Positions 911 to 15,730 of a stretch of DNA of 64,000 bases are shown here, piece after piece (position 1 is the stretch's first letter; each line of letters begins with the position of its first letter). Where the stretch lies: assembly GCF_003018235.1 (NCBI RefSeq), contig NZ_CP027437.1. One strand, written 5' to 3'. This DNA is from Escherichia coli (GTDB lineage: Bacteria > Pseudomonadota > Gammaproteobacteria > Enterobacterales > Enterobacteriaceae). The position numbers and the translations under genes were made by a program. The notes under the pieces were generated by a model. The model saw only the letters and a program-made list of their open reading frames with translations, was not told where the DNA came from and did not search any database.

Positions 911-1267
911 TCATTTTTTTTCAAGCAACTCCTCATAAAGCCACATAACTAACCATTTACTATTTCTTGAATGTTCTAACATATAATGTCCAGACAAATA
1001 TTTAACAAATTCGCCATCATGAAGAGAAATATTTTTATTCATACTGTCAGAAATTATATTCAGAGTCCCTGACTGTACAAAAATATATCCCGTCATCATT
1101 GTTGTAGGTAAAGACAGCGCAGTTTTGTGAATTTTACTAACAATTCTTGAATTATTTACATTTAAACCAACTGTTAATCTAACATTATCTTCAGTGAGAG
1201 GGATGTCAAAATAATCTGACCACTTATAGATATGAAAGTCACTTAAATTTAGAAAAAACTCTCTCAT
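911..1267 (-). CDS. Putative Rhs immunity protein (RhsI-like), AT-rich
   Basis: Small AT-rich ORF immediately downstream of the rhs toxin C-terminus. Start taken at the internal ATG (MREFFLN...) 20 bp after the rhs stop; the longer ORF in the track (to 1384) overlaps rhs. Confidence 0.55.
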   Translation of the reverse strand: MREFFLNLSDFHIYKWSDYFDIPLTEDNVRLTVGLNVNNSRIVSKIHKTALSLPTTMMTGYIFVQSGTLNIISDSMNKNISLHDGEFVKYLSGHYMLEHSRNSKWLVMWLYEELLEKK

Positions 1268-1286
1268 ATTATTCTCATATAAAAGC

Positions 1287-4200
1287 TTAAGGAAAAATAA
1301 CCCCGTATTCTTCAAACGCAGCTCTAGCCGCTGCTTCAGATGCAGCGTTCTGAGTTCCAGTATTTCCGAAATGATAATGACCACTGTGAGGGGCTATATC
1401 AGTACCGAATCGTCCATTCACAACAGTAGCCTCTCCCGCCGCAAGAACTGGTTTTCCATTTGCAATTGCAGCATGAGAAATTTCTATCCCATCTTGCATT
1501 TTTGGTGCAGTTAATAGAGTGCCATCCTCAAGAAGGACATACTTTATATCGCCAGCTTCATCAGCCATATCTGCAAAACGTGGGTCTGATGGTTTCATCG
1601 GTTCAACACCGGCCTCTCTCATTGCAGCCAATTCCTCATCTAAATGTTCCGGTAATTGATTTTTAAACGGGCACCCAATAAAACCCCACGGATCACACCA
1701 GCCCACCGGGTCATGCACATACGACTGCGTGTTCATCCCGCCGCTCAGTTTCAGCGGGTCCTGGCTTAAATACTGCCCCGTTCCGGCATCGTAGTAGCGG
1801 TGTAAATTATACCACAGCCCGCTCTCCTCATCCCGCCACTGGCCCATGAAGCCCGCATCACAGCTTTCACGCTCACTGTCCGGCGAGTCGTTTGCTGCCG
1901 GAAGTCCCCACAGGCTGCGGTGTTTCGTCCACACCTTCTGGCCGTTCGCGCTGTACATCTCCTGTGGTGCGCCGTCCGGGCCGGTCACTATCGGGTAAAA
2001 ATGGCTCCGGTCATCATTCGCCGCCCGGCTTTCCTTTGCCAGCAGTTCAAACCCGTCACGGTAATGCCACTGTTCCCGTAGCGCCGGGCTGCCGTCTGCG
2101 TAGCACTTCTCACTGATGGAAAGCGCCATGCCCTGCCACTGGTAGCGCATTTCACTGATGGCGTGGCCTTGCTGCTTCCATGCAGCACGGATAACGCAGC
2201 GTTTTGCGGTTCTCCGGCCAAAGGCGTCGTAGCTGTACTGCCATACCTCACCGTCTGGTGTCTTTATCTCGCGCAGACGGTCAAAATCGTCCCAGCGGTA
2301 GCGCCACTCCTGTGGGCGAAAGCCGCGTTTTTGTTCTGTGCGCTTTGTCACCCTGCCGCAGGCGTCGTATTCGTAGCGGCTGTCGCCCGCCTGAGTCACA
2401 CATTCACGGCTGTACTGGTGCTGCGACAGAATGCCGTTTATCCGGCTTTCCGCTATCTGCTCGTTTACCGTATAGCGGTAGCGTTCTTCCTGCGCCGGGC
2501 CACCGGCGTCCAGCCGCAGTACGCTGGTTATCTGGTCGCGGGCATCGTACTGGTAGCGCGTTTCCCGCTCCGTGCGCGTTTTCGACCACACTTCATGCCC
2601 GGTCAGGCGGCCCGATTTATCCCACGCGTAGCGGTGTTCGCCCAGCGGTCGCCACGACGCCACGCTCTGGTGACCGCCAGCCAGCCGCTCTGCGCCCTGT
2701 TTTTGCCATGCCGTACGCCCGCAGGCGTCATATCCCTGCTCCTGCATATACACCGCATGGTTCAGCGGCGTCTGTGCCAGCCAGCTTTCCTCATTCTCCG
2801 GGCGGTAACGTCTGCTTTTTTCCAGCCCGGCGGGGGAATGACCGAAGTCCATCCGGTGGCCGTTGCTGCGGTAGCCCATGAGAATGCCCGAAGCATCGTA
2901 TTCTCTCTGTGTTTCCCCGTCCGGCGTTGTGGTGCCCGCCAGCCGTCCGGCTTCGTCGTAACGGTACTCCGTGCGCTGGCCATCCTGCTCTTCCGCCACC
3001 AGGCGATGACGTTCGTCCCACTCCAGTTTTACCTCGCTGGTCAGCGTGTAACCTGCTTCACTGGCATCACTGCGCTCATACACCTGCGCGCTCACCATCC
3101 GGTCATAATGGTCGTACTGATAACAGAGTTGCTGATGCTCGCCGCTGATGGTCGTCACCCGGCCATAGCCATCCCGCGCATAGCGCCATACGCTACCGTC
3201 CGGGCGGTGTTTTTCTGCCAGTCGGCCCTGTTCATCACGGATATAGACGGTTCTGCGTCCGGACCAGTCATCCTCCCCGGCCATCTGGCCCGCTGCATCA
3301 TAGTGCAGCCGCCACTGCTGGTTGCCGCTGCGCGTAAGCTGCGTCAGCCTTGCGGCACCGTCGTAGTTGCAGAGTATCCGCTGCCCGCCCGCGTCTTCCA
3401 CTTCCCGCAGCAGGTCAAATGCCCCGTGGCGGTAGCGCGTGGCCTGCCCCATGGCCCCGGTGTGGAGGGCGATTTTGCCTTCACCGTCATAGCGGAAGGT
3501 TTCCACGCCGCCATCGGCCCGGATAACCGCACTCAGTTTCTCATGCGGGTTATCAGCACCGGGGCGGTACTGCCAGTTCATGCTGCGCCCTTCCGCATCC
3601 ACCAGCCCCGTCAGCCGCAGCCAGCGGTCTTCCGTGTAATGGGTCGTGCGGCCTTCAGCATCCGTATGGGAAAGCAGGCCACCGTGGGCGCTGTAGCCCC
3701 ACTGTTCGTGGCTGCCGTCCGGGTATGTCACTTCCTTCAGCAGACCGTCTTCGGTATGACGGTACTGCCATTTTTGCCCGTTCACTTCCCGCCGGATAAG
3801 GTTCCCTTCGGCGTTATAGCTATAAGCTGCCGTGGTGTGATGGTCACGGTAGGCCGTTACCTGGCCGAACTCATCCCGCTGCCATTCACGCTTGCGCCCG
3901 TTCTCGTCCGTTTCGCTCAGGATACGCCCGGCGTAGTCGCGTTTTATCTGTGTGATACGCCCGCCCGGCTGGCGGATACACAGCGGCTGGTCGTATTCGT
4001 TACGCTCCCATTCAGTGATACGCCCCAGCGGGTCACGCTGTTTTTTCAGCAGCCAGGATTCATCGAACCACAGCGTGGTGGTGGCTCCGGTGGCGTCGGT
4101 ATAATCGGTTCTGCGCTCATCAGGGAAGTAGCGGAAGGTGTCGTTATACAGGCCTTCCTGTGTGCCTGTGGCAGTCACCCGGCCTTCATCGTCATAGCGC

Positions 4201-5813
4201 AGGTGGAAGTGCGTCGGGCCATTGTCGCGCCAGGAACTCAGCCAGCCCTGTTCGGTATAGGTATAGTGCAATGCACCATTAAAGCGGGTCTGTACATCAC
4301 GCAGCCGCTGCTCATCGCCGTGGCTGATATAGTCGTAACGCACCAGCTCGCTGCCGTCTGACTCGTCGGTCACACGGAATATCTGCCCCTGCGGGCCACA
4401 CCTCACCCGCAGACTCAGGCCGCTACTGTGGGTTACGTTTGTCAGGTGGCCGATGGCGTTATAGGTGAAGCGAATTTCGTTGCGGTTGCGGTCTTTTATT
4501 ACTGTTAGCCGCAGACGACGTGCGCCGGGGGAGATGGGCGTAAAGATATAACCCAGTTGTGAGTATTCGTCGAAAATAATAGCCCGCTCACGGTTTCCCA
4601 GGAGGCGATAGTGCGGGACAAGCAGGTTACGGCTACTGTATGGTGCCTGCTCCGTGGAGTAGGCCGGACATAGCCCCTCAGCATCAAAGTAGGTGACGTT
4701 TTTCCCGTTGCTATCGAACTCCAGAAACTGCGACCAGTTACACAACCAGCGACTGCCCAGCAAACCACTAACCGGATGTCGGCCTGTATAAGCACGTTTC
4801 AGCGTCAGCGGTAAAATATGCGAATAGTTGAAATCAGTTCGGTAATCCAGATATTCACCCGTTCCGGTATCCACCGGATCGCTGAACCCCTGACTGATAC
4901 GCTCATTGGCGGCTCTGTTTAACTGCTTTGCTCCCCATAGAGCTGTTAACACCTCCAGACTTGATACAACAGATTGTTCCAGTACCGTCATATCTGCATT
5001 AATCGGCCCATACTGTCCGGTTGTCTTATCAGCCGTGATGGTTTTACATCCTTCCTGAATAACTGCCGAGCAGGTAATTTTATGGCCCTTACGCGCCAGC
5101 GGCAGGCTGTTGACGGAAATAATTTTGCTCCCTTCCACTATCTGCGGAGGAGGACTGCCCGGATCCTTACTACATTCAACCGGATCAGTGACGCGAGCTA
5201 CCGCTTTTCCTTCAAAAAAAACATTAGGTGAGCCTTCTACAATCTGCCCGGTTTCAGATGCCCAGCGGGAACCAATTACCATCGCTGCACCACCGACAAA
5301 TCCACCAGCTAATCCCCCGGCCCCGGCAGCAACGGTGGCAGCAAGCACACCCAATGCGGCGCCCCCTGTAGCGACAACCAGAGCCCCCACTGCAATCCCT
5401 ACGATAAGTCCACCGATTAACCCACCAATAGCACCCAGAAAGGAATTGTTATGAACAATGTGATGACCCACACACGCCGGTATATCTGTTGGGCCGGAAA
5501 CAGCGTGATCTTTACCCCAGGTATCCATGAACCAGTCACCTGCTTTGGTGCCCAGCCATCCCCCCAGCATCCCGCCAGCCAGTCCGGCAATCAAAGGGCC
5601 TCCAAATCCTGCAACAGCTTTGGCTATTCCGGCTGCACAGGTATTTGCTGCGGCGGCTGCCAGTCCCACCTTTGCCGTTGCTCCCACCATGCTGACAGCC
5701 ATTATTCCAGTACTGGCAATATGTCCTGTGGTAGCAATACTCTCCACTGTTTCGGCATTACTGTCCCGTTGGTCCAGCTCCGCTAACTTCTCCTGCGCGC
5801 TTTTTTCCGTCAT
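1287..5813 (-). CDS. Rhs-family T6SS effector: N-terminal Gly/Ala-rich transmembrane region plus PAAR-like domain, YD-repeat shell, DPxG autoproteolysis motif (VHDPVGWCDPWGF), about 130-aa C-terminal toxin domain of unknown type
   Basis: 1508-aa ORF. Many YD repeats (YDxxGR-type), PAAR-like region (VTDPVECS...KGHKITCSA), C-terminal DPVGWCDPWGF followed by a divergent tail. Preceded by a DUF1795/EagR-like gene. Confidence 0.9.
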   Translation of the reverse strand: MTEKSAQEKLAELDQRDSNAETVESIATTGHIASTGIMAVSMVGATAKVGLAAAAANTCAAGIAKAVAGFGGPLIAGLAGGMLGGWLGTKAGDWFMDTWGKDHAVSGPTDIPACVGHHIVHNNSFLGAIGGLIGGLIVGIAVGALVVATGGAALGVLAATVAAGAGGLAGGFVGGAAMVIGSRWASETGQIVEGSPNVFFEGKAVARVTDPVECSKDPGSPPPQIVEGSKIISVNSLPLARKGHKITCSAVIQEGCKTITADKTTGQYGPINADMTVLEQSVVSSLEVLTALWGAKQLNRAANERISQGFSDPVDTGTGEYLDYRTDFNYSHILPLTLKRAYTGRHPVSGLLGSRWLCNWSQFLEFDSNGKNVTYFDAEGLCPAYSTEQAPYSSRNLLVPHYRLLGNRERAIIFDEYSQLGYIFTPISPGARRLRLTVIKDRNRNEIRFTYNAIGHLTNVTHSSGLSLRVRCGPQGQIFRVTDESDGSELVRYDYISHGDEQRLRDVQTRFNGALHYTYTEQGWLSSWRDNGPTHFHLRYDDEGRVTATGTQEGLYNDTFRYFPDERRTDYTDATGATTTLWFDESWLLKKQRDPLGRITEWERNEYDQPLCIRQPGGRITQIKRDYAGRILSETDENGRKREWQRDEFGQVTAYRDHHTTAAYSYNAEGNLIRREVNGQKWQYRHTEDGLLKEVTYPDGSHEQWGYSAHGGLLSHTDAEGRTTHYTEDRWLRLTGLVDAEGRSMNWQYRPGADNPHEKLSAVIRADGGVETFRYDGEGKIALHTGAMGQATRYRHGAFDLLREVEDAGGQRILCNYDGAARLTQLTRSGNQQWRLHYDAAGQMAGEDDWSGRRTVYIRDEQGRLAEKHRPDGSVWRYARDGYGRVTTISGEHQQLCYQYDHYDRMVSAQVYERSDASEAGYTLTSEVKLEWDERHRLVAEEQDGQRTEYRYDEAGRLAGTTTPDGETQREYDASGILMGYRSNGHRMDFGHSPAGLEKSRRYRPENEESWLAQTPLNHAVYMQEQGYDACGRTAWQKQGAERLAGGHQSVASWRPLGEHRYAWDKSGRLTGHEVWSKTRTERETRYQYDARDQITSVLRLDAGGPAQEERYRYTVNEQIAESRINGILSQHQYSRECVTQAGDSRYEYDACGRVTKRTEQKRGFRPQEWRYRWDDFDRLREIKTPDGEVWQYSYDAFGRRTAKRCVIRAAWKQQGHAISEMRYQWQGMALSISEKCYADGSPALREQWHYRDGFELLAKESRAANDDRSHFYPIVTGPDGAPQEMYSANGQKVWTKHRSLWGLPAANDSPDSERESCDAGFMGQWRDEESGLWYNLHRYYDAGTGQYLSQDPLKLSGGMNTQSYVHDPVGWCDPWGFIGCPFKNQLPEHLDEELAAMREAGVEPMKPSDPRFADMADEAGDIKYVLLEDGTLLTAPKMQDGIEISHAAIANGKPVLAAGEATVVNGRFGTDIAPHSGHYHFGNTGTQNAASEAAARAAFEEYGVIFP

Positions 5814-5843: not shown

Positions 5844-6275
5844 TTATTTATCCTGCGGCATTCCAAAACAAAAATTCAATAATGCTCCCCGCATCGCTTT
5901 ACGATCCTCCTCTGCCAGCGCCTGTGTTGAGGAATAGGTCAGCGTCAGTACTTGTCGCTCGTTCAGAATTACCAGCAGCAACTGCTGTATCATCACCCCC
6001 TTGTTATCCCAGCTAAATTCCCAGTATTCCGCCGGGCGCTCCTGTACATGACAGCGTTCTTCGACGGTGAACACCATTTTCGACAGTTCGGTACGGAATT
6101 TCTTTTTCTGCACCGCCAGATAGTCATCAAACTGCGCACCATCCGGCAATATTTCACGGGTAACAACAACATTAGCCCCGGCAATCGCACTTAATACCGG
6201 TGTCAGAATATTCATACTGCTGTCCTGCCAGTTTCCTGGCAGGGTGAAATGTCCTTCATTAATTAGATATTGCAT
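5844..6275 (-). CDS. EagR-like (DUF1795) effector-associated chaperone for the downstream PAAR-Rhs
   Basis: 143 aa; N-terminus MQYLINEGHFTLPGNWQDSSMNIL matches the typical DUF1795 start pattern (recalled). Sits directly upstream of an rhs with an N-terminal TM region. Confidence 0.7.
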   Translation of the reverse strand: MQYLINEGHFTLPGNWQDSSMNILTPVLSAIAGANVVVTREILPDGAQFDDYLAVQKKKFRTELSKMVFTVEERCHVQERPAEYWEFSWDNKGVMIQQLLLVILNERQVLTLTYSSTQALAEEDRKAMRGALLNFCFGMPQDK

Positions 6276-6480: not shown

Positions 6481-6930
6481 CTAATGGTTTCTCAAAAAAA
6501 TCTTTGCGTAATTAGGATTATTTAACTCTAAGTTCACCACATTAGATTTAAAATTATAAAAATCCGCATCTCTATCATCCTCTGTAACCTTTGAATCAAC
6601 CGTCGACCACACATTCGTATAAAAACTACACTCATGCTTTCCTGGCGTAATATGGTAATCTCTGGCAATTTGTACATAGTCCCCCACCTTCATTTCTCCG
6701 GGAGAGATTTTGTAATATTCCCCTTGTCCAAGGTTGTACATTACACCTGAATAACGAATCTTCTTGCCATCACATTCAACACTCAATTGATCGGAGCTCG
6801 GATATTTACCTTGAGATATGTACCTGACATCTATATATAATGGAATTTCACCATTATTTTTAACACGTACAGCAACATAAACGTCATCTTCTTTGGGTAT
6901 AACATCCACAATAACCATGTAACATGGCAT
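6481..6930 (-). CDS. Hypothetical protein downstream of vgrG; candidate immunity/partner for the VgrG C-terminal domain
   Basis: AT-rich ORF starting just after the vgrG stop; no obvious signal peptide; start codon uncertain (ATG at 6930 or 6918). Confidence 0.4.
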   Translation of the reverse strand: MPCYMVIVDVIPKEDDVYVAVRVKNNGEIPLYIDVRYISQGKYPSSDQLSVECDGKKIRYSGVMYNLGQGEYYKISPGEMKVGDYVQIARDYHITPGKHECSFYTNVWSTVDSKVTEDDRDADFYNFKSNVVNLELNNPNYAKIFLRNH

Positions 6931-6946
6931 CCATAAATTAAGCCTT

Positions 6947-9784
6947 TTATTCAAAATAACGTTCAAAGTTATAAGCACTTTGTAATGAGGCCCGCTTACC
7001 CTTTTTAGCTAGATCTATACCACCACTTCTTAAACCCTCATCAAAACTTCCGAGCACATCATAAAAATGTGACATTTCATGAATCAAAGTTATGACTTGT
7101 GAATCACGACCGTCCAGGGGATCGTCAATAAATTTATTTCCAAGATAAATGGTATGGGTATAATCTCCATCATTAACTCTTCCATGAACATTAACATCCA
7201 TAAATTCAAAATTTTGGTACTTAATCCCCTCATTAATTTCAATTTCTTTTTTTACAGCGTTTAAAATTTTATTCCTGGCTGCCTCATCATCAACACCGAA
7301 TATATTTCCAAAACGCTCTTTATCGTTATCATTCCAACGAATCAACTCATCTCTTGCTGATTTTAATTTTTTACGCTGCGCTTCAAGAACAAGTTTCATA
7401 TCATTTTCACTGATCCTTTTCTCCTCTATCATTTCATAAACAGGATTTCCATAATTATCTGTAAGAGGTTTTCCATTATATCCAATTATAGCTACTCCAT
7501 TACCCGGCCCTGATGTAGAAAAATCTCTAATTGTATTAATTTTATATTTACCATTTGCGTCACTACCGCCAGGATTCAGTGCCAAGTGAGTAGGTCCATC
7601 AAGGATGATAGTGCCGTCTGAATTCATCACGAGAGTGCTGCTTCCCACAGTCAACGTAATGTTCGTTGCCGCAGTCAAATGAATGGCACCAGATTTTGAT
7701 GTGATGGTAATATCCCCTTCGACAGTCTCCGTGCAGGTTCCCGTTTCTACCGTCACTTCGCGTTTACCCGTTTTCACCGTCAGAGACTGGTCACCTTCTG
7801 TCACAGTAATATCCCGGTTGCCTTTGATGGTTTCGGTGTGCTTACCCTCAACAAATTCTGTGCGATCGATTTTTACCGTAGATGTTTCGTTATGAATGAT
7901 GGTTTTCGTCCGATCTGCCTTTACCGTGTGTGTTTCGTTATTTTTCACGACGGTATTCAGATCTTTCTCCGCAAGAAACCTCACTTCTTCCGCACCTGTT
8001 TTATCGTCAAAGCGCAGCATGTTTCCGTTGGTCGGCCCGCCATACAGCGAGTGGCTGAATATCCCGCTCTGCGACGCCATGCCCGGCAATCCCCACGGCG
8101 GCATGGTGTCCTGGTTATAGGTGCGCCCTACAATGATCGGTAAATCCGGGTCGCCGTTTTTGAAATCCACCAGCACTTCCTGGCCGATGCGCGGGATCTG
8201 GATCATCCCGAATCCTTTCCCCGCCCACGGGTAGCTGACGCGGATCCAGCAGGAGCTGTTTTCGTCATTCTTTCCGTAACGGTCCCAGCCAAACTGGACC
8301 TTCACCCGGCCATATTTATCCGTCCAGATTTCCTGCCCCGCAGGGCCGGTGACGATGGCGCTCTGCGGGCCTTTGGTGTGGGGTTTGCTCAGGGTTCGCT
8401 GTGGGCGGTAAACTTCGCTGGTGGGATGCAGTTCAAACGTGGTGACATAGGTAAAATGCTGCTCCTGACCGCTGTGCTGCGCATTATCCCGTAAAAACAG
8501 CGTGGTCTGTACCAGTAGGTATTCCTGGTTGACCTCTGCCGTTGGATGATTCATCAGCGTAAAGGTGTAACCCGTCATGAGGGTGCGGATATGACCTGCC
8601 CCATGTGCCCGGCTGCCGGGGCTGCGCTGCGCTTCCATACGAATGCGCGTCAGCATCTCGCCTTCGCCCGTAGTGAAGTAATCACCAGGCCATTCATAAT
8701 GCTCGTATTCAGCATGACCGGTATCACGCGGACTAGCCACGGTACTTTTAAGCAGCGAACGAGGCTTCATAAAATCAAAATCGTCCATCACCCACTTTCC
8801 AGTACGTAGCCTCTCACTGGCCGTAATGGTGTGGATAAATTCCTTGTCCAGTTTCAGACCTTCCTGGTGCCACTCCACCAGTGGCGAGTCAGGGCACGCT
8901 TTATGACCATTGATGGCATCCGCCAGCACCAGCGTATGGCTGTTCTCGCTGTGCTCAAACCACCAGTAAATTCCCCACTCCTGCATCAGGCGCTGGATGA
9001 AATCAAAATCCGTTTCACCGTACTGTACCTGCCAGGCACGAGGTGGATAATTTTCCACCAGCCGTTTTTCCACCGGAAAGGAATATTCATCCAGTACTTC
9101 ATCGAGAATATCCACCACGGTTTTATTCTGGAACGCCTTGTAGTCGCTGGTATGGGTCAGCAGCTTCAGCCATGGCTCAATGCGTAATTCATACGTTACC
9201 GAACGGCCCTCATGGCCGACCACCCGCGCTGCCGTCACCAGCCCGCTGATATACCGTTTTTCGCCACCGTCCAGTTCAATACTGACGCACAGGTCTTTGC
9301 CCACCATGGGCTGAAGCGGCAGGTTGGCAGCGGGAGAAACGTAACCCAGGTTCAGGATGTCCGGCGTTTTAAGCTGTACTGTGTAGGAAAACAGATTCCC
9401 AAGTCCTTCCGAACCATTCATGCCTGCAAACAAAAGCAACTGCGGCGGCACCGCGCTACCACTTACTGTGACGTTATGCGCCCCCGGACCACCGGCTGCA
9501 AGCGACGACGCCGCATCCTGAACTGTACCAGCCATATCCGAGATCCCTACTGCAGCAGCGGCAGCCTGCGCAGCAGTTACTGCAGCTTTAACCAGACCTG
9601 ACGGTTCCGGCAACGCACCAAACAGGTCCGCCGCGGCCTGTTCTGCCATCTCCTCGGCGGCACCAGATACATCGGTTACGGCTGAACTGGCGCTTACAGC
9701 ACTACTTTCTCCGGCTATCGGTGGCGTGGAGATAGCTGGCCCACCGTTACTGCCAGATTTATTACTCGTAGATACAAAACTCAT
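6947..9784 (-). CDS. vgrG: VgrG (TssI) spike protein, 'evolved' type, with an AT-rich C-terminal extension containing an HExxH motif
   Basis: 945 aa. gp27-like region ([25 protein letters not shown]), gp5 OB-fold and beta-helix repeats (VKVQFGWD..., TVKxxR repeats). C-terminal about 180 aa is low GC and contains LIHEMSHF. Good SD (AAAGGA) upstream of the ATG at 9784. Confidence 0.9.
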
Positions 9785-9808: not shown

Positions 9809-10180
9809 TTAGAATTTAGCGCCCGGCGGCCAGAAAAAATAAGAAATAACCCGCCACTGTCCATCTTTATAATGAAAAAAACATGTCAGATTTAAATCCC
9901 CCCGCAAATGCCAAAACATTTCTTTGATGGGAATATTTCTGAATTTAGGATTTGTTGAGCGATAGGTGTTTTCAATTTCTATATAATACTCACCGACAAA
10001 TTTATAACGAGGATTTATAAATTCATACGCTGGCTGACCATAGTTATTTAATAGAACATTCTCTTCAACTCCATTATACACACCACTCGCATTCAGATAA
10101 GCATGCCCAGGAATATCAGACATGCTATTTTTCGCCCCACCCACTATCAAAAAAATTACCACAGCGTATATTAGTTTCAT
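9809..10180 (-). CDS. Hypothetical exported protein (N-terminal hydrophobic signal/anchor); candidate immunity protein for the upstream HExxH protein
   Basis: 123 aa, N-terminus MKLIYAVVIFLIVGGAKNS; AT-rich; its start overlaps the stop of the upstream ORF by 4 bp. Confidence 0.45.
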   Translation of the reverse strand: MKLIYAVVIFLIVGGAKNSMSDIPGHAYLNASGVYNGVEENVLLNNYGQPAYEFINPRYKFVGEYYIEIENTYRSTNPKFRNIPIKEMFWHLRGDLNLTCFFHYKDGQWRVISYFFWPPGAKF

Positions 10181-10917
10181 TTTTTTACGCTTTTCACAAA
10201 AAAATTAGAACCCGGAACCATTCTATTTAACCGCTCAATGACATTTCCCATATAACGAGAGCGCAGTTCCATACCAATATTCATTAACGCACTGGCGTCC
10301 CCGGAGAATGGTGTAGTTGCTTTATCTGCATCATCACTATAGTATTCATCAGCAAGATATCCAATAATATGCCCAAGCTCGTGAGACAGCCCTATTTGCT
10401 CATGGCAAACTTTTGATGAGCCAAGACATTTAGCTGCTGCAACTATATCTTTAGAGTCAAGTTCAACGTATCGACTATTCCAGACAATGGAACTCTGTCG
10501 AAAACTATTTGGATCATCATTATCAATTTTAAACACCACCACATCCCAATACCCATGACGATCAGTCTGAATTATTTCTATTGAGAAAGATAAATCCTTA
10601 CCATTAAACTTACTGGCAAACTCAGACTTCCCAGAAACGGATAAAAAAATCTTATTATTCCATGTTTGATTAATGACAAAAATAACTTCCCCATGAAAGG
10701 TATTTTTCTCCAAATCTGTCCAGTCAGTTTTTGCATCCCATCTTTTTATCCAATTATATTTCCATCTCAGCAACAATGAGATTGCACCATTTTCACGGTC
10801 AATTCTTAAATCTCCCCAGGCATCATTGTCCCTGAAATATCGTTTATCCAGCATTAAGTCGTCATAAGCATCGTATGCCTGCTGAATAGCCTCATCATGA
10901 GAGTTACCCATGATCAC
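10177..10917 (-). CDS. Hypothetical protein with HExxH zinc-metallopeptidase motif (SHELGHIIGYLADEY); candidate T6SS effector
   Basis: 246-aa AT-rich ORF between tagF and vgrG; HELGH motif followed by Gly and acidic residues; no signal peptide. Confidence 0.5.
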   Translation of the reverse strand: MIMGNSHDEAIQQAYDAYDDLMLDKRYFRDNDAWGDLRIDRENGAISLLLRWKYNWIKRWDAKTDWTDLEKNTFHGEVIFVINQTWNNKIFLSVSGKSEFASKFNGKDLSFSIEIIQTDRHGYWDVVVFKIDNDDPNSFRQSSIVWNSRYVELDSKDIVAAAKCLGSSKVCHEQIGLSHELGHIIGYLADEYYSDDADKATTPFSGDASALMNIGMELRSRYMGNVIERLNRMVPGSNFFVKSVKK

Positions 10918-11102
10918 CTCCTTATATTGCTATATATCCAATAAACCTGAAGATGCTTGCTTACCCACCAATGCAGACGGGACCAAGGGTAGCCTGAAGT
11001 CAACAGATAGCAATCAACTTGAAGTTCATGGGTATATTTTTTCCCCATCTACACGTTTATCGTCATATTTTTGTATAGCTATTCTCAGCATTCGTGGGCA
11101 CA

Positions 11103-11834
11103 TTATTTTTTCTCCAGTCGCAAAGCATCCACATACCGCCCTTCGCTGTTCTGCTGCCAGAACCAGCCCTGCCCCTGCTGCGCCTGCGTCAGCATTTTGT
11201 CCGGCCAGCCCGGCCACGGCAGGTGGCGCACACCGGGCAGTTCCACTACCGGCGCATCCGGCAGCCCGGTGAGTTCCCGGCTACGCTGCGGCACACGTCG
11301 TAGGCCGCGCAGCCATTGCGTCCAGCGCTGCCCCGGTCGCCACATCGCCCAGAGCTGGTCGGCCTGCTCTGCCAGTCGCCCGCGCCGTTCCGCCTGTGGT
11401 GCAACCTGCGCCGCCACCAGCCGCGCCAGCCAGTACAGCCAGCCCTGTGTGTCATCCAGGCTCTCTTCCAGCCATTCCCGCCCGGCACACTGGTAAATCA
11501 CCAGTGGCCACGGCCTGCCCGTACTGTCACGCGAGGCGGTCAGTACCCCGGTCAGCCACTCATCGCGCCCACCAATGGGTAAAAATCCCGGCGATAAAAC
11601 AAAGCTCCACGGTAGCGGATGGTGTTCCGGCACCGCCGTTTTCTCGCGCGGTGACAGATGCATCCAACCGTCAGTTACTCCGGTCTTCGCAGCATCCGTT
11701 CCTTCCGGCAGAACAATATGCCGCCCCTGTCCCAGCCACGTCTGCTGGTTCAGCCACGCCTGCCACACCTGCCCTTCGTTCGCACTCACCCGCCAGCGCA
11801 CATAGTCCCGCTGGTCCGGCAGTCTGCCGAACAT
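11103..11834 (-). CDS. tagF: TagF-like (DUF2094) T6SS accessory protein
   Basis: Directly downstream of tssM; N-terminus MFGRLPDQRDYV fits the FGKLPxxGDF pattern of TagF/ImpM. Start chosen at the internal Met to avoid overlapping tssM. Confidence 0.6.
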   Translation of the reverse strand: MFGRLPDQRDYVRWRVSANEGQVWQAWLNQQTWLGQGRHIVLPEGTDAAKTGVTDGWMHLSPREKTAVPEHHPLPWSFVLSPGFLPIGGRDEWLTGVLTASRDSTGRPWPLVIYQCAGREWLEESLDDTQGWLYWLARLVAAQVAPQAERRGRLAEQADQLWAMWRPGQRWTQWLRGLRRVPQRSRELTGLPDAPVVELPGVRHLPWPGWPDKMLTQAQQGQGWFWQQNSEGRYVDALRLEKK

Positions 11835-11863
11835 CGCCGGAGCCGATACCACTGCCCGGCGAA

Positions 11864-14800
11864 TCACAGCGCTCGCTCCGGGCAGGCGAAGCGTTGCAAT
11901 AGTCCGCGATCCACTGGGTCAAAATCCCGTCCGGCGGTGATTTCCAGTATCACCCGCCGACCATCAAAGCTGTACTCCACCTGCTGTGTTCCCCGTACCG
12001 CCGTTTCTTGCGCTTTTCCCGCATCCAGCAGGTGAAACAGCGCCCACGGTCCATTAGTCAGCAGCGTCGAGGTGTCCTGGCGGATGCGCGGGCTGGCGGT
12101 TATTTCCGCCATTGAGCCGTTGCGCGGACCCGGCCAGTTAACTTTCAGCGGCCTGACCGGGCCGTGAGCGTAACGCAGTACCTGGCCGTCAATGTCAATC
12201 ACCAGTTCGGTGATGGCCGGGTCCATATCCACGACGCGGACCTGCATCGCCCATGAGAACTTTTTCCCTCCGTCGCCGTTAAAAAACACGCTGCGGATCT
12301 GTTTCGCCTCCTGAAACGGCGTCAGGTCCGGCCCCTGTAAGGTCATGTTGCCTTCGGTCGGTTTGTAGCGCCACGGATTGCTGGCGGTGTCCGCCTGTGG
12401 GGCCAGTTGCTTCGTCCAGAAGGCATCCAGCACGCCGCCGCTGGCAAAGATACGGTTAAAATCGTCCGCGCTGACCTCCTGCGGGCTGTCGGTGAAGGGG
12501 TAGCGCCCGTCGATGGCGTCGCGGCACTCATCACCGATCACCGCTTCCATCTGCGCGTTCAGCACTTCACCGGTGCCGGCGTTGATTTTTCGCGTTCCCT
12601 GCTGCGTGAGATCCAGCAGAATATTTTTCAGCGGCGCGGGCAGTTTTGCCGCCTCCAGTTGCAGTTTATCCGCCGCAGAAATGCGCCCCGGCAGAGTGCT
12701 CGCAGCCAGCGCACTGTCGGCAATGGTGAGCTGAGTGTAATACTCATTGAGCATCGTCAGCAGCGAATTTAATTGCGGCACGCCGCCGCCCTGCCCGCTG
12801 TCCGTCCGCCCGGAAACCACTTCCCGCAGGGCGGCGAAGCGGTCTTCCACCAGTGATTTTTCCAGCCGCTCTTCCGGGTGAATGTCCTGCAACAGCTTCG
12901 CCGTCTGCACCGCTTTTCCCGCATTGCCGGAGAGCCGGTCCTGCGCGCGCTGGGCCATCTGCTTTTGTCTGGCCTGCGCATCCAGAGGCGGCACCAGCGT
13001 GGTCTGCACCACCACCGCTTTACTCAGGCGCATCAGCGGGGAATCCGGCGAGGCCAGAGTGCGGAGCACCTGAAGGTCATACGCTAGTCCAGGGCTACCG
13101 TCCTCCCCGGCGCTGTTGATGCTGTGAATGCTTGCCAGAAAATCCTGCCATCGGCGAGCATATTCAGCCAGGTACAGACGACGTACCTCACGGGTAACCG
13201 GGAGTTCCTGCCCCGGTAGCTGACTCATCACAATATCAGTCGTTTTTTTTTGCGCACTTTCCCGGCCCATCACCCAGGCGTCGTCCGCTGATGCGGCGGC
13301 GACAAACTCCGACAGCCGTTTGTCGAACAGTTCCCGGTAGCCTTCGCGGGTGAAGATGCCGGGCACGCCCCTGTCCAGCGGCGCGCCATCCGTGCGGACA
13401 AAAACCGTTCCCGCATCCGCGCCCACAGCGCGAACCAGCGAAAACTCCTGCGGTGCTTCGCTCTCCATGGAAGCCAGGGCTCGAGTGTAGATACGCTCAG
13501 TGCTGTTATGGCCGTCAAGGAAGGCCCGCGCCTGGCGGATCAGCCCCTCATCTTTTTCCCAGGGCGAATGCACCACGCGGCTGCCGTCAAACAGGGCGTC
13601 AATATGCTCCAGCACGGCTGCGCGACCGCCAAACTCCGCTACGCTGTCGCGGTTGTCCAGATCGTTCAGCACCCAGGCGTGGATCTCCGCCGCGTTGTAT
13701 TTGTCCTCGTGGTCCTTATCGAGGTTCAGCAGCAGATAAACATGCAGGGCGTCATAGGCGGCTTTGCTGTCCTGACGCGCAATCGCATCTGAAAGCACGT
13801 ATTCCATTCGTTTCACCAGCGGAGGGAGCAGTAGCTGGTCCAGCAGGCGGTCATACAGGGATGCGACACTCTCCATCACCGGCGGGACGCTGTAAAGACC
13901 ATAACGCCAGGCCAGCGGCGGCGAGTCCGGGTCCATCCCCGGCCAGGCAGAGAGCGCCCGCGCCTGATTCAGCAGGGCCGGAACAGGCTGCATAGCAGGT
14001 TTTCCGGTATAGGCTTTGACATCACCATCCAGTTGGGTCGTCCGGCTGGCGATTTCATTCAGATAACCGCTGTTACCCTGCTGGCTACCCTGCATTCCCT
14101 GCCACAACCAGAAAACCAGCGCCAATACCAGCAGATGCCCGCCGGTACGCAGCAGGCGATAACGCCAGGCCCATTGAAGATTCGGCTCCACCAGGTGCGC
14201 TTCGCGGAAGATAAACCGCGTCAGTAGATCGTGCAGGAAATAGCTGCGGTTGCCGTCCGGCAGGGTATGGGATGGGGAATCTGCCTTCCCTTTGATCGCC
14301 CGGACAAAACGCTGCCAGATGCCTGTCTGATCGGCCACCGCGTCTGCCTGCGCCTGCGCGGCACTGGTGAAAAATACGCCGCGCAGGGTGTTGTTAAGCT
14401 GGGTAGCATCAAATTTTGAATCGAGGAAAATCTGTTCAATAGCTTCCAGCAGCGGCGCGCCCAGCGCGGCAAATTCACGCGGGAAGCGGTAGAGCCGCTG
14501 ACGGCTTTTAAGGTCGTACTCTTCCTGCAACCGGGTATCCAGCCCCTGATCCAGCCGCTGTGTCAGGTTTGCCAGTTCCCGGCCACAGAGCGCATGCAGC
14601 GACTGCGGATCGCTGGCGTGACGCCTGCGGCTGTAAGGCAGGGTGAAGCCCCAGACCTGGGCTCGCAGGTGACTGGTCAACCCACGGAAATACTCCGTAA
14701 AGCCCGGCAGCAGATCCATCTTGGTGACAACCAGATAGACCGGAAAACGAATGCCCAGCGTCTCCCGCAGTTCCGCCAGCCGCGCACGCAGAGCTGCACA

Positions 14801-15730
14801 GGCAGCCAGCCGTTCCGCCGGGGACTGCGCGGTCAGATCCGCCACGTTCAGCGTCAGGATCACGCCGTTGAGCGGTGCGCCTGGGCGGTGTTTACGCAGC
14901 AGCCCCAGAAACCCCTGCCATTCCCCGGCGTTACGCTGGGTCGCGCTGATTTCGCCGCCGTCATCGTGTCGGGCATAGCGCCCGGCGGTATCAATAAGCA
15001 CTGCTTCGTTGGTAAACCACCAGTCGCAGTGCAGCGTGCCGCCGCCCGGCACGGTGAGGATATGCGCGGTCTGCTCCATCTGCTCCGCCAGCGGAAACTG
15101 TAGCCCGGTGTTAAGCAGCGCAGTGGTTTTACCATCGCCGGGGCTGCCGATAACCATAAACCACGGCAGTTCGTACAGAAAACGCTTTCCTTCCAGGACT
15201 TTTCGCCAGCCAGGAAGATCCACACGCAGTTGTTTCAGTTGCCGGATGGCGCGGCTGACAATATGGCTGACGGTACGCAGGTCGGCTTTAATTTCCCCTG
15301 CCACAGGTACGTCTTCCCCACGCGGATGCAGGAAACGGCGCAGCAGTTGTTCATCCAGACGCAGCGCCCGCCACAGCCGGTACAGGCCATACAGAGCATA
15401 AGTCAGCAGGATCAGACCGATAAGCGTCAGACGCAGCCACAGCGGCGCAAATGGATGAACATCACCGAGGGACAGCAGGGGTGAAACAAAACCGATGACC
15501 AGGCACAGAACCGTCACGCCAATGATGCTCATCGACCAGTTAACCAGCCACAGTGCGAGGAACATCAGTAACAGAACGATGGTGACTACCCGACTTCCCA
15601 CGGACGCGAGCGGATGCAGGGTGTCAAACGCCACCAGCGGCCCAACAAACCAGACCAGCAACGCCAGCATCACCACGCCAACAATGGCCAGCGCGCGGCG
15701 GGAAAACAGCATACTGAGAAATTTTTGCAT
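11864..15730 (-). CDS. tssM: TssM (IcmF-like) T6SS membrane complex protein
   Basis: 1288 aa; N-terminal TM helices; Walker A GSPGDGKTT; large periplasmic C-terminal domain. Confidence 0.9.
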   Translation of the reverse strand: MQKFLSMLFSRRALAIVGVVMLALLVWFVGPLVAFDTLHPLASVGSRVVTIVLLLMFLALWLVNWSMSIIGVTVLCLVIGFVSPLLSLGDVHPFAPLWLRLTLIGLILLTYALYGLYRLWRALRLDEQLLRRFLHPRGEDVPVAGEIKADLRTVSHIVSRAIRQLKQLRVDLPGWRKVLEGKRFLYELPWFMVIGSPGDGKTTALLNTGLQFPLAEQMEQTAHILTVPGGGTLHCDWWFTNEAVLIDTAGRYARHDDGGEISATQRNAGEWQGFLGLLRKHRPGAPLNGVILTLNVADLTAQSPAERLAACAALRARLAELRETLGIRFPVYLVVTKMDLLPGFTEYFRGLTSHLRAQVWGFTLPYSRRRHASDPQSLHALCGRELANLTQRLDQGLDTRLQEEYDLKSRQRLYRFPREFAALGAPLLEAIEQIFLDSKFDATQLNNTLRGVFFTSAAQAQADAVADQTGIWQRFVRAIKGKADSPSHTLPDGNRSYFLHDLLTRFIFREAHLVEPNLQWAWRYRLLRTGGHLLVLALVFWLWQGMQGSQQGNSGYLNEIASRTTQLDGDVKAYTGKPAMQPVPALLNQARALSAWPGMDPDSPPLAWRYGLYSVPPVMESVASLYDRLLDQLLLPPLVKRMEYVLSDAIARQDSKAAYDALHVYLLLNLDKDHEDKYNAAEIHAWVLNDLDNRDSVAEFGGRAAVLEHIDALFDGSRVVHSPWEKDEGLIRQARAFLDGHNSTERIYTRALASMESEAPQEFSLVRAVGADAGTVFVRTDGAPLDRGVPGIFTREGYRELFDKRLSEFVAAASADDAWVMGRESAQKKTTDIVMSQLPGQELPVTREVRRLYLAEYARRWQDFLASIHSINSAGEDGSPGLAYDLQVLRTLASPDSPLMRLSKAVVVQTTLVPPLDAQARQKQMAQRAQDRLSGNAGKAVQTAKLLQDIHPEERLEKSLVEDRFAALREVVSGRTDSGQGGGVPQLNSLLTMLNEYYTQLTIADSALAASTLPGRISAADKLQLEAAKLPAPLKNILLDLTQQGTRKINAGTGEVLNAQMEAVIGDECRDAIDGRYPFTDSPQEVSADDFNRIFASGGVLDAFWTKQLAPQADTASNPWRYKPTEGNMTLQGPDLTPFQEAKQIRSVFFNGDGGKKFSWAMQVRVVDMDPAITELVIDIDGQVLRYAHGPVRPLKVNWPGPRNGSMAEITASPRIRQDTSTLLTNGPWALFHLLDAGKAQETAVRGTQQVEYSFDGRRVILEITAGRDFDPVDRGLLQRFACPERAL

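Follow-up and report, generated by a model that had tools for sequence, protein, structure and literature searches.

Two candidate type VI secretion system (T6SS) cargo effectors, each of 243 amino acids (aa), have been described in variable region 2 of Salmonella pathogenicity island 6 (SPI-6), where they were named after the domains 'Peptidase_M64' (NCTC7411_03656/03655) and 'Reprolysin_4' (SESEF3709_03438/03437) (Blondel et al., 2023; PMC10469887). Each belongs to a two-gene unit whose second product, 84-144 aa long and equipped with a signal peptide or a transmembrane segment, is the putative immunity protein, and both are predictions made with Bastion6 and HHpred (PMC10469887). A 2024 survey repeats the label of these Salmonella candidates, and a 2025 review and a 2026 paper from the same field neither mention them nor report a test. 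The stretch analysed here, called the window, comprises 64,000 nucleotides (nt) of Escherichia coli DNA (contig NZ_CP027437.1) and carries, between the tagF-like gene and vgrG of a T6SS cluster, a gene for a 244-aa protein with a zinc-peptidase motif (the large protein) followed by a gene for a 123-aa protein (the small protein). Judged by homology, this pair is best placed, as a diverged member from E. coli, in the T6SS effector/immunity family already predicted in Salmonella. It resembles the published modules in its slot after tssM-tagF and before vgrG, in effector length (243 versus 244 aa), in the two-gene layout and in the exported partner, and differs from them in being a diverged E. 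coli allele outside that paper. The Salmonella homologues that we retrieved are equated with the published candidates by length, slot, serovar (Senftenberg) and partner sizes, not by comparison of locus tags.

We propose, and consider probable, that one gene of the pair encodes a T6SS cargo effector directed against bacteria and the other the protein that confers immunity to it. The initial annotation had suggested a cargo effector with a periplasmic immunity protein, a reading now backed by the slot, the signal-less effector, the conserved site, a family of exported partners, peptidoglycan-binding relatives and the existence of diverged alleles. Both open reading frames (ORFs) are, by their conservation, real genes and not chance ORFs, because many diverged homologues exist for each protein and because the pair, at 97-99.8% identity across the region, is present in 18 complete E. 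coli chromosomes out of 5426, the strains being of human, animal and environmental origin. The gene order tssM-tagF-[pair]-vgrG-eagR(DcrB)-PAAR-Rhs is co-directional throughout. Placement of the pair among tssM, tagF and vgrG, as first annotated, is borne out by a TIGR03361 match for vgrG (E 1e-165) and, for tagF, by RefSeq, which labels the ORF 'TagF domain-containing', together with a TIGR03373 match (E 1.3e-9) just under the curated cut-off; the Salmonella homologue of this ORF matches Pfam TagF_N. The AT-rich composition is equally clear, with a GC content of 0.37-0.39 in the pair against about 0.61 in tagF and tssM, and the 123-aa ORF on the minus strand and its 4-bp overlap with the large ORF (the effector stop codon and the immunity start share ATGA) can be read directly in the sequence. 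The immunity gene ends 25 nt before the start of vgrG. Two details, the strand and the start codon, were revised slightly: the large ORF, like the small one, is on the minus strand, and in place of the 246 aa obtained from a GTG (10177-10917) a start at the ATG at 10911, giving 244 aa, is likelier, because AGGAGG is found 5 nt upstream of it and the same start is annotated by RefSeq in the 99.8% identical strain MEI003. No terminator-like site was found between tagF and vgrG, no excess of promoter-like sites was found around the pair, and a second copy of the pair was sought in the window and not found.

The large protein contains HELGHIIGYLADEY, and the HExxH followed by a glycine and acidic residues that had been pointed out at the outset was found at residues 176-190 as SHELGHIIGYLADEY. 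When 122 members of the family were aligned, H177, E178 and H181 were invariant, D188 and E189 were each present in 120 members and Y190 in 118, while G184 was conserved in 85. Towards the C-terminus, D205, G213, R217 and R219 are individually conserved in 90% or more of the 122 members (G213 in 120), and at the candidate Met-turn the serine of position 208, which is alanine in the window protein, occurs in 105, the methionine in 102 and the asparagine in 101. The family signature reads HE[F]GHxxG-x(n)-DEY ... D-x2-S-[IL]-M-N-x-G-x2-L-R-x-R-H, in which the gap between the second histidine and DEY is variable: 5 residues, the canonical HExxHxxGxxD spacing, is commonest (32 members), 6 residues, as in the window protein, are found in 17 and 11 residues in 25, with others up to 29.

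This family comprises at least 335 sequence clusters and had no curated description in the databases searched. The profile searches and structure prediction that the initial annotation had put forward were run, and the HMMER profile search returned 335 representatives at E <= 0.001 (147 at E <= 1e-10); a word-indexed search for the large protein gave 6 clusters only. The relatives are mostly stand-alone proteins of 205-230 aa, and they come from Proteobacteria, Bacteroidota, Myxococcota and Planctomycetes, with free-living marine and soil bacteria among the carriers. Neither the large protein nor its relatives have a visible Sec signal, and the N-terminus is hydrophilic. An N-terminal LysM is present in four relatives (best E 6.5e-8) and PG_binding_1 in one (E 4e-13), and these peptidoglycan-binding fusions lend independent support to an envelope target. 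We note that the T6SS-linked enterobacterial alleles have an extra N-terminal helix (residues 5-24; 10842-10899, minus strand), missing from most of the wider family, whose alignments begin at query residue 26-30; it is not conserved between alleles and may be a loading or recognition element.

Against Pfam, NCBIfam and PADLOC neither protein of the pair gave a significant match. The only Pfam match of the large protein was to Peptidase_M64, at the motif (28 residues, E 0.016), and against the PDB, by single sequence and by profile, it gave motif-level matches only. Tox-MPTase2-5, M91, M23 and DUF4157 had no reported Pfam match in the window protein or in the 122 relatives. Membership of peptidase family M64 (igalysin, PF09471) was rejected on that short match; the Peptidase_M64 profile reached E <= 0.001 in one of the 122 relatives, and the family profile matched the igalysin structure 3p1v at E 0.016. 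Membership of the reprolysin/adamalysin family (M12B) was also rejected, as there is no third histidine and no significant profile match for the window protein, which is not among the three members matching Reprolysin_2 or the two matching Reprolysin_4 at E <= 0.001. Whereas two different domains were recognised in the Salmonella candidates, the homologues that we retrieved form one family, neither M64 nor reprolysin, and the published labels would appear to reflect motif-level resemblance, not family membership. The initial annotation had recognised neither protein of the pair as belonging to a known family; this stands for Pfam, NCBIfam, PADLOC and the PDB, but not for the literature, where Salmonella counterparts were published as candidates in 2023 (PMC10469887).

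An AlphaFold model built from the 122-sequence alignment scored highly (predicted local distance difference test, pLDDT, 93.2; predicted template modelling score, pTM, 0.87) and replaced a run from 7 sequences that was unreliable (pLDDT 75, four of five models poor). The overall fold of its catalytic domain is metzincin-like, and HELGHIIG (residues 177-184) provides the metzincin HExxHxxG/N motif on the active-site helix (residues 174-182), with a further helix at residues 218-231 after the candidate Met-turn. With a conserved HExxH site on such a predicted fold, the early description of the protein as loosely metzincin-like was accurate. Foldseek found no match in the PDB at E <= 0.001, and the structural neighbours of the model are all protein endopeptidases. 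A fold search of AFDB50 gave 213 matches at E <= 0.001; the matches listed are 'uncharacterized' or have automatic labels such as 'Peptidase M10 domain-containing', and the genera among them include Sphingomonas, Sulfitobacter, Tenacibaculum, Sinomicrobium, Bacteroides, Sorangium, Stieleria and Mogibacterium. Two DUF4157-annotated entries were remote fold matches only. Close parallels are the igalysins (M64) and snapalysins (M7), metzincins with aspartate as the third zinc ligand (PMC12237041); the large protein has their HExxH, an aspartate as candidate third ligand with a tyrosine two residues after it, a candidate Met-turn and, in the model, a C-terminal helix. In igalysin structures that tyrosine is a possible 'tyrosine switch' (PMC12237041), and by analogy D188, Y190 and M210 fit the ligand, tyrosine-switch and Met-turn roles. 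From conservation and the model together, we predict that the large protein is a catalytically intact zinc endopeptidase of a separate, uncurated metzincin-like family.

The small protein begins MKLIYAVVIFLIVGGAKN. Export signals were judged from hydrophobic segments and lipoboxes, and the N-terminal hydrophobic signal or anchor noted initially for the 123-aa protein was recovered: the top 13-residue window scores about 2.8 on the Kyte-Doolittle scale, measured on the near-identical homologue P0007, and a comparable N-terminal segment is present in every full-length homologue. These homologues fall into 38 clusters, in E. coli, Salmonella, Citrobacter and Hafnia; full-length members terminate in FWPPGAxF, and the family has no match in Pfam or the PDB. 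Gene contexts of relatives of the large protein were sampled individually (n=9). In five of six distinct contexts (L005, L006, L009/L010, L012/L013 and Salmonella L002) the partner gene belongs to the same small family and starts within a few bases of the upstream stop, with an overlap in four, and its product has a signal peptide or lipobox (LSIAC in the L005 homologue), an NLT-x-WF[HQ] motif and an invariant C-terminal phenylalanine. With L007 added to these five, the partner family follows a relative in six distinct contexts outside the window allele. The sixth of the contexts first named has a 423-aa relative (P0151) with its own C-terminal extension, followed by an OmpA-like ORF, in an auxiliary cluster of VgrG, PAAR-like and DUF2169 genes. 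Because the two families are co-inherited across phyla, down to about 17-26% identity, the comparisons argue strongly for a direct functional, and probably physical, relationship between them, and because the small partner is exported this relationship would be set in the periplasm.

A T-run at about 9834, near the 3' end of the immunity gene, has one or two extra bases in MEI003 and LCP30S3_I5, and RefSeq therefore calls the gene frameshifted in both genomes (L001, 20110-20482; L008, 5704-6077). The change in length could be a sequencing error or real slippage; the window copy retains the conserved FWPPGAKF end.

The cluster in MEI003 adjoins yafV-ivy-fadE and is of the SPI-6-like T6SS kind; its genes include those for Tae4/Tai4, for Hcp, for the Tss core and for a Tlde1-domain protein, which has a partner downstream. 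A tagF/tssM junction of this type was found in 114 genomes, about 2% of complete E. coli. In STW0522-31, one representative of the majority type, the slot holds a pair of 242 aa and 123 aa, with 41% and 59% identity to the proteins of the window; in one strain the slot additionally contains a glucosaminidase module and what is left of a tagF. The same slot in Salmonella SPI-6 holds a 243-aa and 144-aa pair whose large protein is 48% identical to that of the window and whose partner is clearly homologous, and a metagenomic enterobacterial contig has the same pair arrangement between tagF and vgrG. Nearby core genes are about 92% identical at the DNA level, against 41-48% for the effector alleles. 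Since alleles of one pair family occupy one site, the slot is a polymorphic cassette site. A third allele (233 and 128 aa) occurs in E. coli/Shigella (L015 and L016, 7001-8085) in degraded T6SS loci beside yafV-ivy-fadE, where a VgrG fragment and an Rhs tip are left, and many effector copies in Shigella flexneri are partial. In Salmonella SPI-6 a C-terminal remnant of another effector allele (HEIGH...DEY...MNIGTELR) lies between the immunity gene and vgrG (L003, 8387-8761), and suggests cassette replacement by recombination. In Hafnia sp. five small ORFs are lined up alongside a phage integrase (L014, 6116-8899); among them is an immunity homologue (P0011), and no effector gene adjoins it. The row may represent an array of orphan immunity genes, and two ORFs close to the homologue, of 134 and 139 aa, equal in size ORFs that follow the pair in locus L017. 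Taken together, the diverged alleles, the effector remnant, the lone immunity gene and retention in decayed loci look like hallmarks of an arms race.

The analysis shows how the genes are laid out, that the catalytic motif and the pairing are conserved, which class the fold belongs to, that export signals are present, that the pair is linked to the T6SS in Enterobacteriaceae and that its alleles are diverse; we infer the secretion route, toxicity, substrate and mode of inhibition as follows. The effector would be made in the cytoplasm without a signal peptide and loaded on the firing apparatus, most likely via the VgrG spike, whose gene starts 25 nt beyond the immunity gene. Injection would carry it into the periplasm of Gram-negative neighbours, and there it would function as a zinc endopeptidase belonging to a distinct metzincin-like family. 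Zinc would be bound by H177, H181 and, as third ligand, probably D188; E178 would serve as catalytic base, Y190 may be a tyrosine switch, and M210 would lie in the Met-turn beneath the metal. As substrate we prefer the peptide moiety of peptidoglycan, or else a peptidoglycan-attached protein, and its cleavage would weaken the wall. The 123-aa partner would be exported by Sec to the periplasm of the producer, block the enzyme one-to-one and so guard against fire from sister cells. By analogy with known toxins, a protein made in the cytoplasm, with relatives that carry wall-binding domains and with an exported neutraliser, is what may be expected of a toxin aimed at the cell wall of a neighbour.

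Established systems offer partial parallels to this scheme. In the 2019 work of Wood et al., VgrG2b of Pseudomonas aeruginosa was reportedly found to be neutralised by a periplasmic immunity protein. Its C-terminal metallopeptidase is, like the proposed effector, a T6SS-delivered HExxH zinc peptidase acting in the prey periplasm (PMC6899460), but the domain is fused to the spike and described as gluzincin-like, whereas the window protein is predicted to be a stand-alone cargo and to have a metzincin-like fold; no match between the two appeared in sequence or in fold. Tae4/Tai4 and Tlde1/Tldi1, both encoded in the same cluster, are likewise small signal-less wall-targeting cargo effectors with a periplasmic immunity gene; they differ in being a cysteine amidase and an L,D-transpeptidase-like enzyme, of unrelated fold and chemistry, and in being experimentally proven. 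The serralysin AprA is a metzincin without a Sec signal, encoded beside a small Sec-exported protein (AprI/Inh), the blocker of its active site. Between serralysins and the profile of the large-protein family there were marginal motif matches, and no sequence similarity was found between the serralysin/inhibitor systems and the window pair; AprA depends on type I secretion and has repeats-in-toxin (RTX) sequences, and its inhibitor inserts its N-terminus, in contrast to the conserved C-terminal phenylalanine of the window family. Other metallopeptidase effectors of the T6SS (VgrG2b, PAAR-M91, Rhs-MPTase4 and a VgrG-gluzincin in Enterobacter) belong to different families, and a preprint on T6SS1 of Shiga toxin-producing E. 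coli and an Enterobacter paper deal with other metallopeptidase effectors.

Several points weigh against our proposal, and the substrate is its weakest step. To our knowledge no metzincin hydrolyses peptidoglycan, the known ones cleaving proteins, and because known metzincins are protein endopeptidases we give peptidoglycan only about an even chance of being the substrate. An alternative that we regard as possible, if on the whole doubtful, keeps the same delivery and immunity and lets the effector cut a periplasmic or envelope protein (for example a peptidoglycan-bound one like Lpp, OmpA or Pal, or an enzyme of wall synthesis), leaving the peptidoglycan peptide uncut. It draws on the structural neighbours, all of them protein endopeptidases, and on the VgrG2b metallopeptidase, a periplasmic toxin whose mechanism is described as still unclear (PMC10763514); the LysM and PG_binding_1 fusions show wall localisation, not wall cleavage, and the label 'peptidoglycan hydrolase (amidase)' attached to the Salmonella homologues (PMC10469887) reflects motif-level domain matches only. 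The present evidence fits an envelope protein and peptidoglycan alike. A bolder proposal, which we hold to be rather unlikely, is that an undescribed metzincin family is a widespread antibacterial toxin and contains the first metzincin to cut peptidoglycan peptides; its inhibitor would act as a plug, inserting the carboxylate of the invariant C-terminal phenylalanine in the active site as a product mimic, and delivery would be by the T6SS in enterobacteria and by other export routes elsewhere. Further points against an effector/immunity pair of the T6SS concern the active site and loading: D188 is at +7 from H181, where the canonical third ligand is at +6, the Hcp lumen is small for an effector of about 28 kDa, neither an adaptor gene nor a known loading motif (MIX, for instance) was recognised, and our literature search found no experimental work on any family member. 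In two genomes, moreover, RefSeq has the immunity gene frameshifted and the effector intact.

The wider distribution also tells against it, as most of the distant relatives are two-gene orphan modules, without a T6SS gene in the surrounding 8-10 kb, and the Gram-positive genus Mogibacterium contributes one AFDB relative, so the family is not exclusive to the T6SS. Such modules, and the occurrence of a serralysin-like protease with type I secretion genes a few kb from one orphan locus, would suit a protease exported by a route other than the T6SS and paired, like AprA/AprI, with a periplasmic inhibitor against leaked enzyme, its position in the T6SS cluster being incidental. We think this improbable, since neither a signal peptide nor a C-terminal RTX or type I secretion signal is visible, the pair lies in the tagF-vgrG slot of every intact Enterobacteriaceae cluster examined and beside VgrG/Rhs fragments in the degraded ones, and another member is in a VgrG auxiliary cluster. 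There is even less to recommend a housekeeping role, in which a wall-remodelling peptidase would open the peptidoglycan of the producer, like TagX in Acinetobacter: a gene inside the structural operon whose product may act on the wall could be read this way, but the protein has no signal peptide or membrane anchor with which to reach its own periplasm, is paired with an exported partner, survives in loci with a decayed T6SS and is encoded in an AT-rich variable cassette whose alleles diverge far more than the core genes. Just as improbable is a virulence protease delivered into eukaryotic host cells. Metzincins often cleave host proteins and the carrier strains include human and animal isolates as well as environmental ones, but a conserved exported partner and peptidoglycan-binding fusions are unexpected for a host-directed effector, and the family is present in free-living marine and soil bacteria. 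An antibacterial T6SS effector with its immunity protein remains the explanation that we favour.

The features of the locus are collected in Table 1. The spike downstream of the pair is itself of the 'evolved' kind: the C-terminal 300 or so residues of VgrG (~6950-7870) contain DUF2345 and Aspzincin_M35 with an HEMSH motif (Pfam E 2.4e-6; AsaP1 structure 2x3a, E 2e-4), so that two different predicted zinc-peptidase toxins are neighbours in the operon. In LCP30S3_I5 (L008) the effector allele of the window is accompanied by a plain VgrG of 737 aa. The first 110 or so residues of the window VgrG (9455-9784, minus strand) form a low-complexity extension rich in alanine and serine, with the TIGR03361 match starting at residue 112, and the VgrGs of 734-739 aa in related clusters may, judging by length, share it. 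The 165-aa ORF (6481-6978, minus strand) is AT-rich and shares 32 nt with the 3' end of vgrG; it had no match in NCBIfam or PADLOC and no obvious signal peptide, and its product may confer immunity to the M35 domain of VgrG. The PAAR-Rhs protein has its C-terminal tip (1287-1700, minus strand) in an AT-rich patch (GC 0.36), and a small ORF (911-1384, minus strand) follows, the usual arrangement of an Rhs toxin and its immunity gene.

Table 1. Features of the T6SS locus around the effector/immunity candidate pair (window coordinates).
Feature	Position	Strand	Basis
tssM	11864-15730	minus	ORF and profile scan
tagF-like gene, immediately upstream of the pair	11103-11867	minus	TIGR03373 E 1.3e-9; RefSeq label
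Shine-Dalgarno AGGAGG, 5 nt upstream of ATG 10911	10917-10922	minus	read from sequence
Candidate effector gene, 244 aa, stand-alone predicted zinc metallopeptidase, no signal peptide	10177-10911	minus	stop codon 10177-10179
Putative zinc-binding/catalytic motif H177-E178-L-G-H181-I-I-G184-Y-L-A-D188-E189-Y190	10342-10383	minus	conservation in 122 members
Candidate Met-turn A208-L-M210-N-I-G213, then R217-x-R219 and C-terminal helix	10273-10290	minus	conservation and model
Candidate immunity gene, 123 aa, exported, ATG start	9809-10180	minus	ORF; homologous clusters; follows distant effector relatives
Signal peptide or membrane anchor of the candidate immunity protein, ~residues 1-20, MKLIYAVVIFLIVGGAKNSM	10121-10180	minus	hydrophobic-segment scan of homologues
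vgrG (context gene)	6947-9784	minus	TIGR03361 E 1e-165
165-codon ORF	6481-6978	minus	ORF
DcrB/EagR-type chaperone gene	5844-6275	minus	profile scan
PAAR-Rhs toxin gene	1287-5813	minus	profile scan

What this analysis adds is that the retrieved Salmonella homologues and the E. coli alleles belong to a single family, which has its own signature and a metzincin-like predicted fold, and that this family is widespread beyond the enterobacteria and tied to a single family of exported partners with an invariant terminal phenylalanine. A T6SS effector/immunity pair built on a zinc peptidase is as a concept expected, not surprising; the pair is of interest as an entry point to two uncharacterised protein families, and because these have neither a solved structure nor a curated model, one biochemical and structural study would define both. 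If the proposal is correct, the T6SS-1/SPI-6 clusters of E. coli and Salmonella would gain another wall- or envelope-directed weapon, and a function would be assigned to several hundred uncharacterised sequence clusters.

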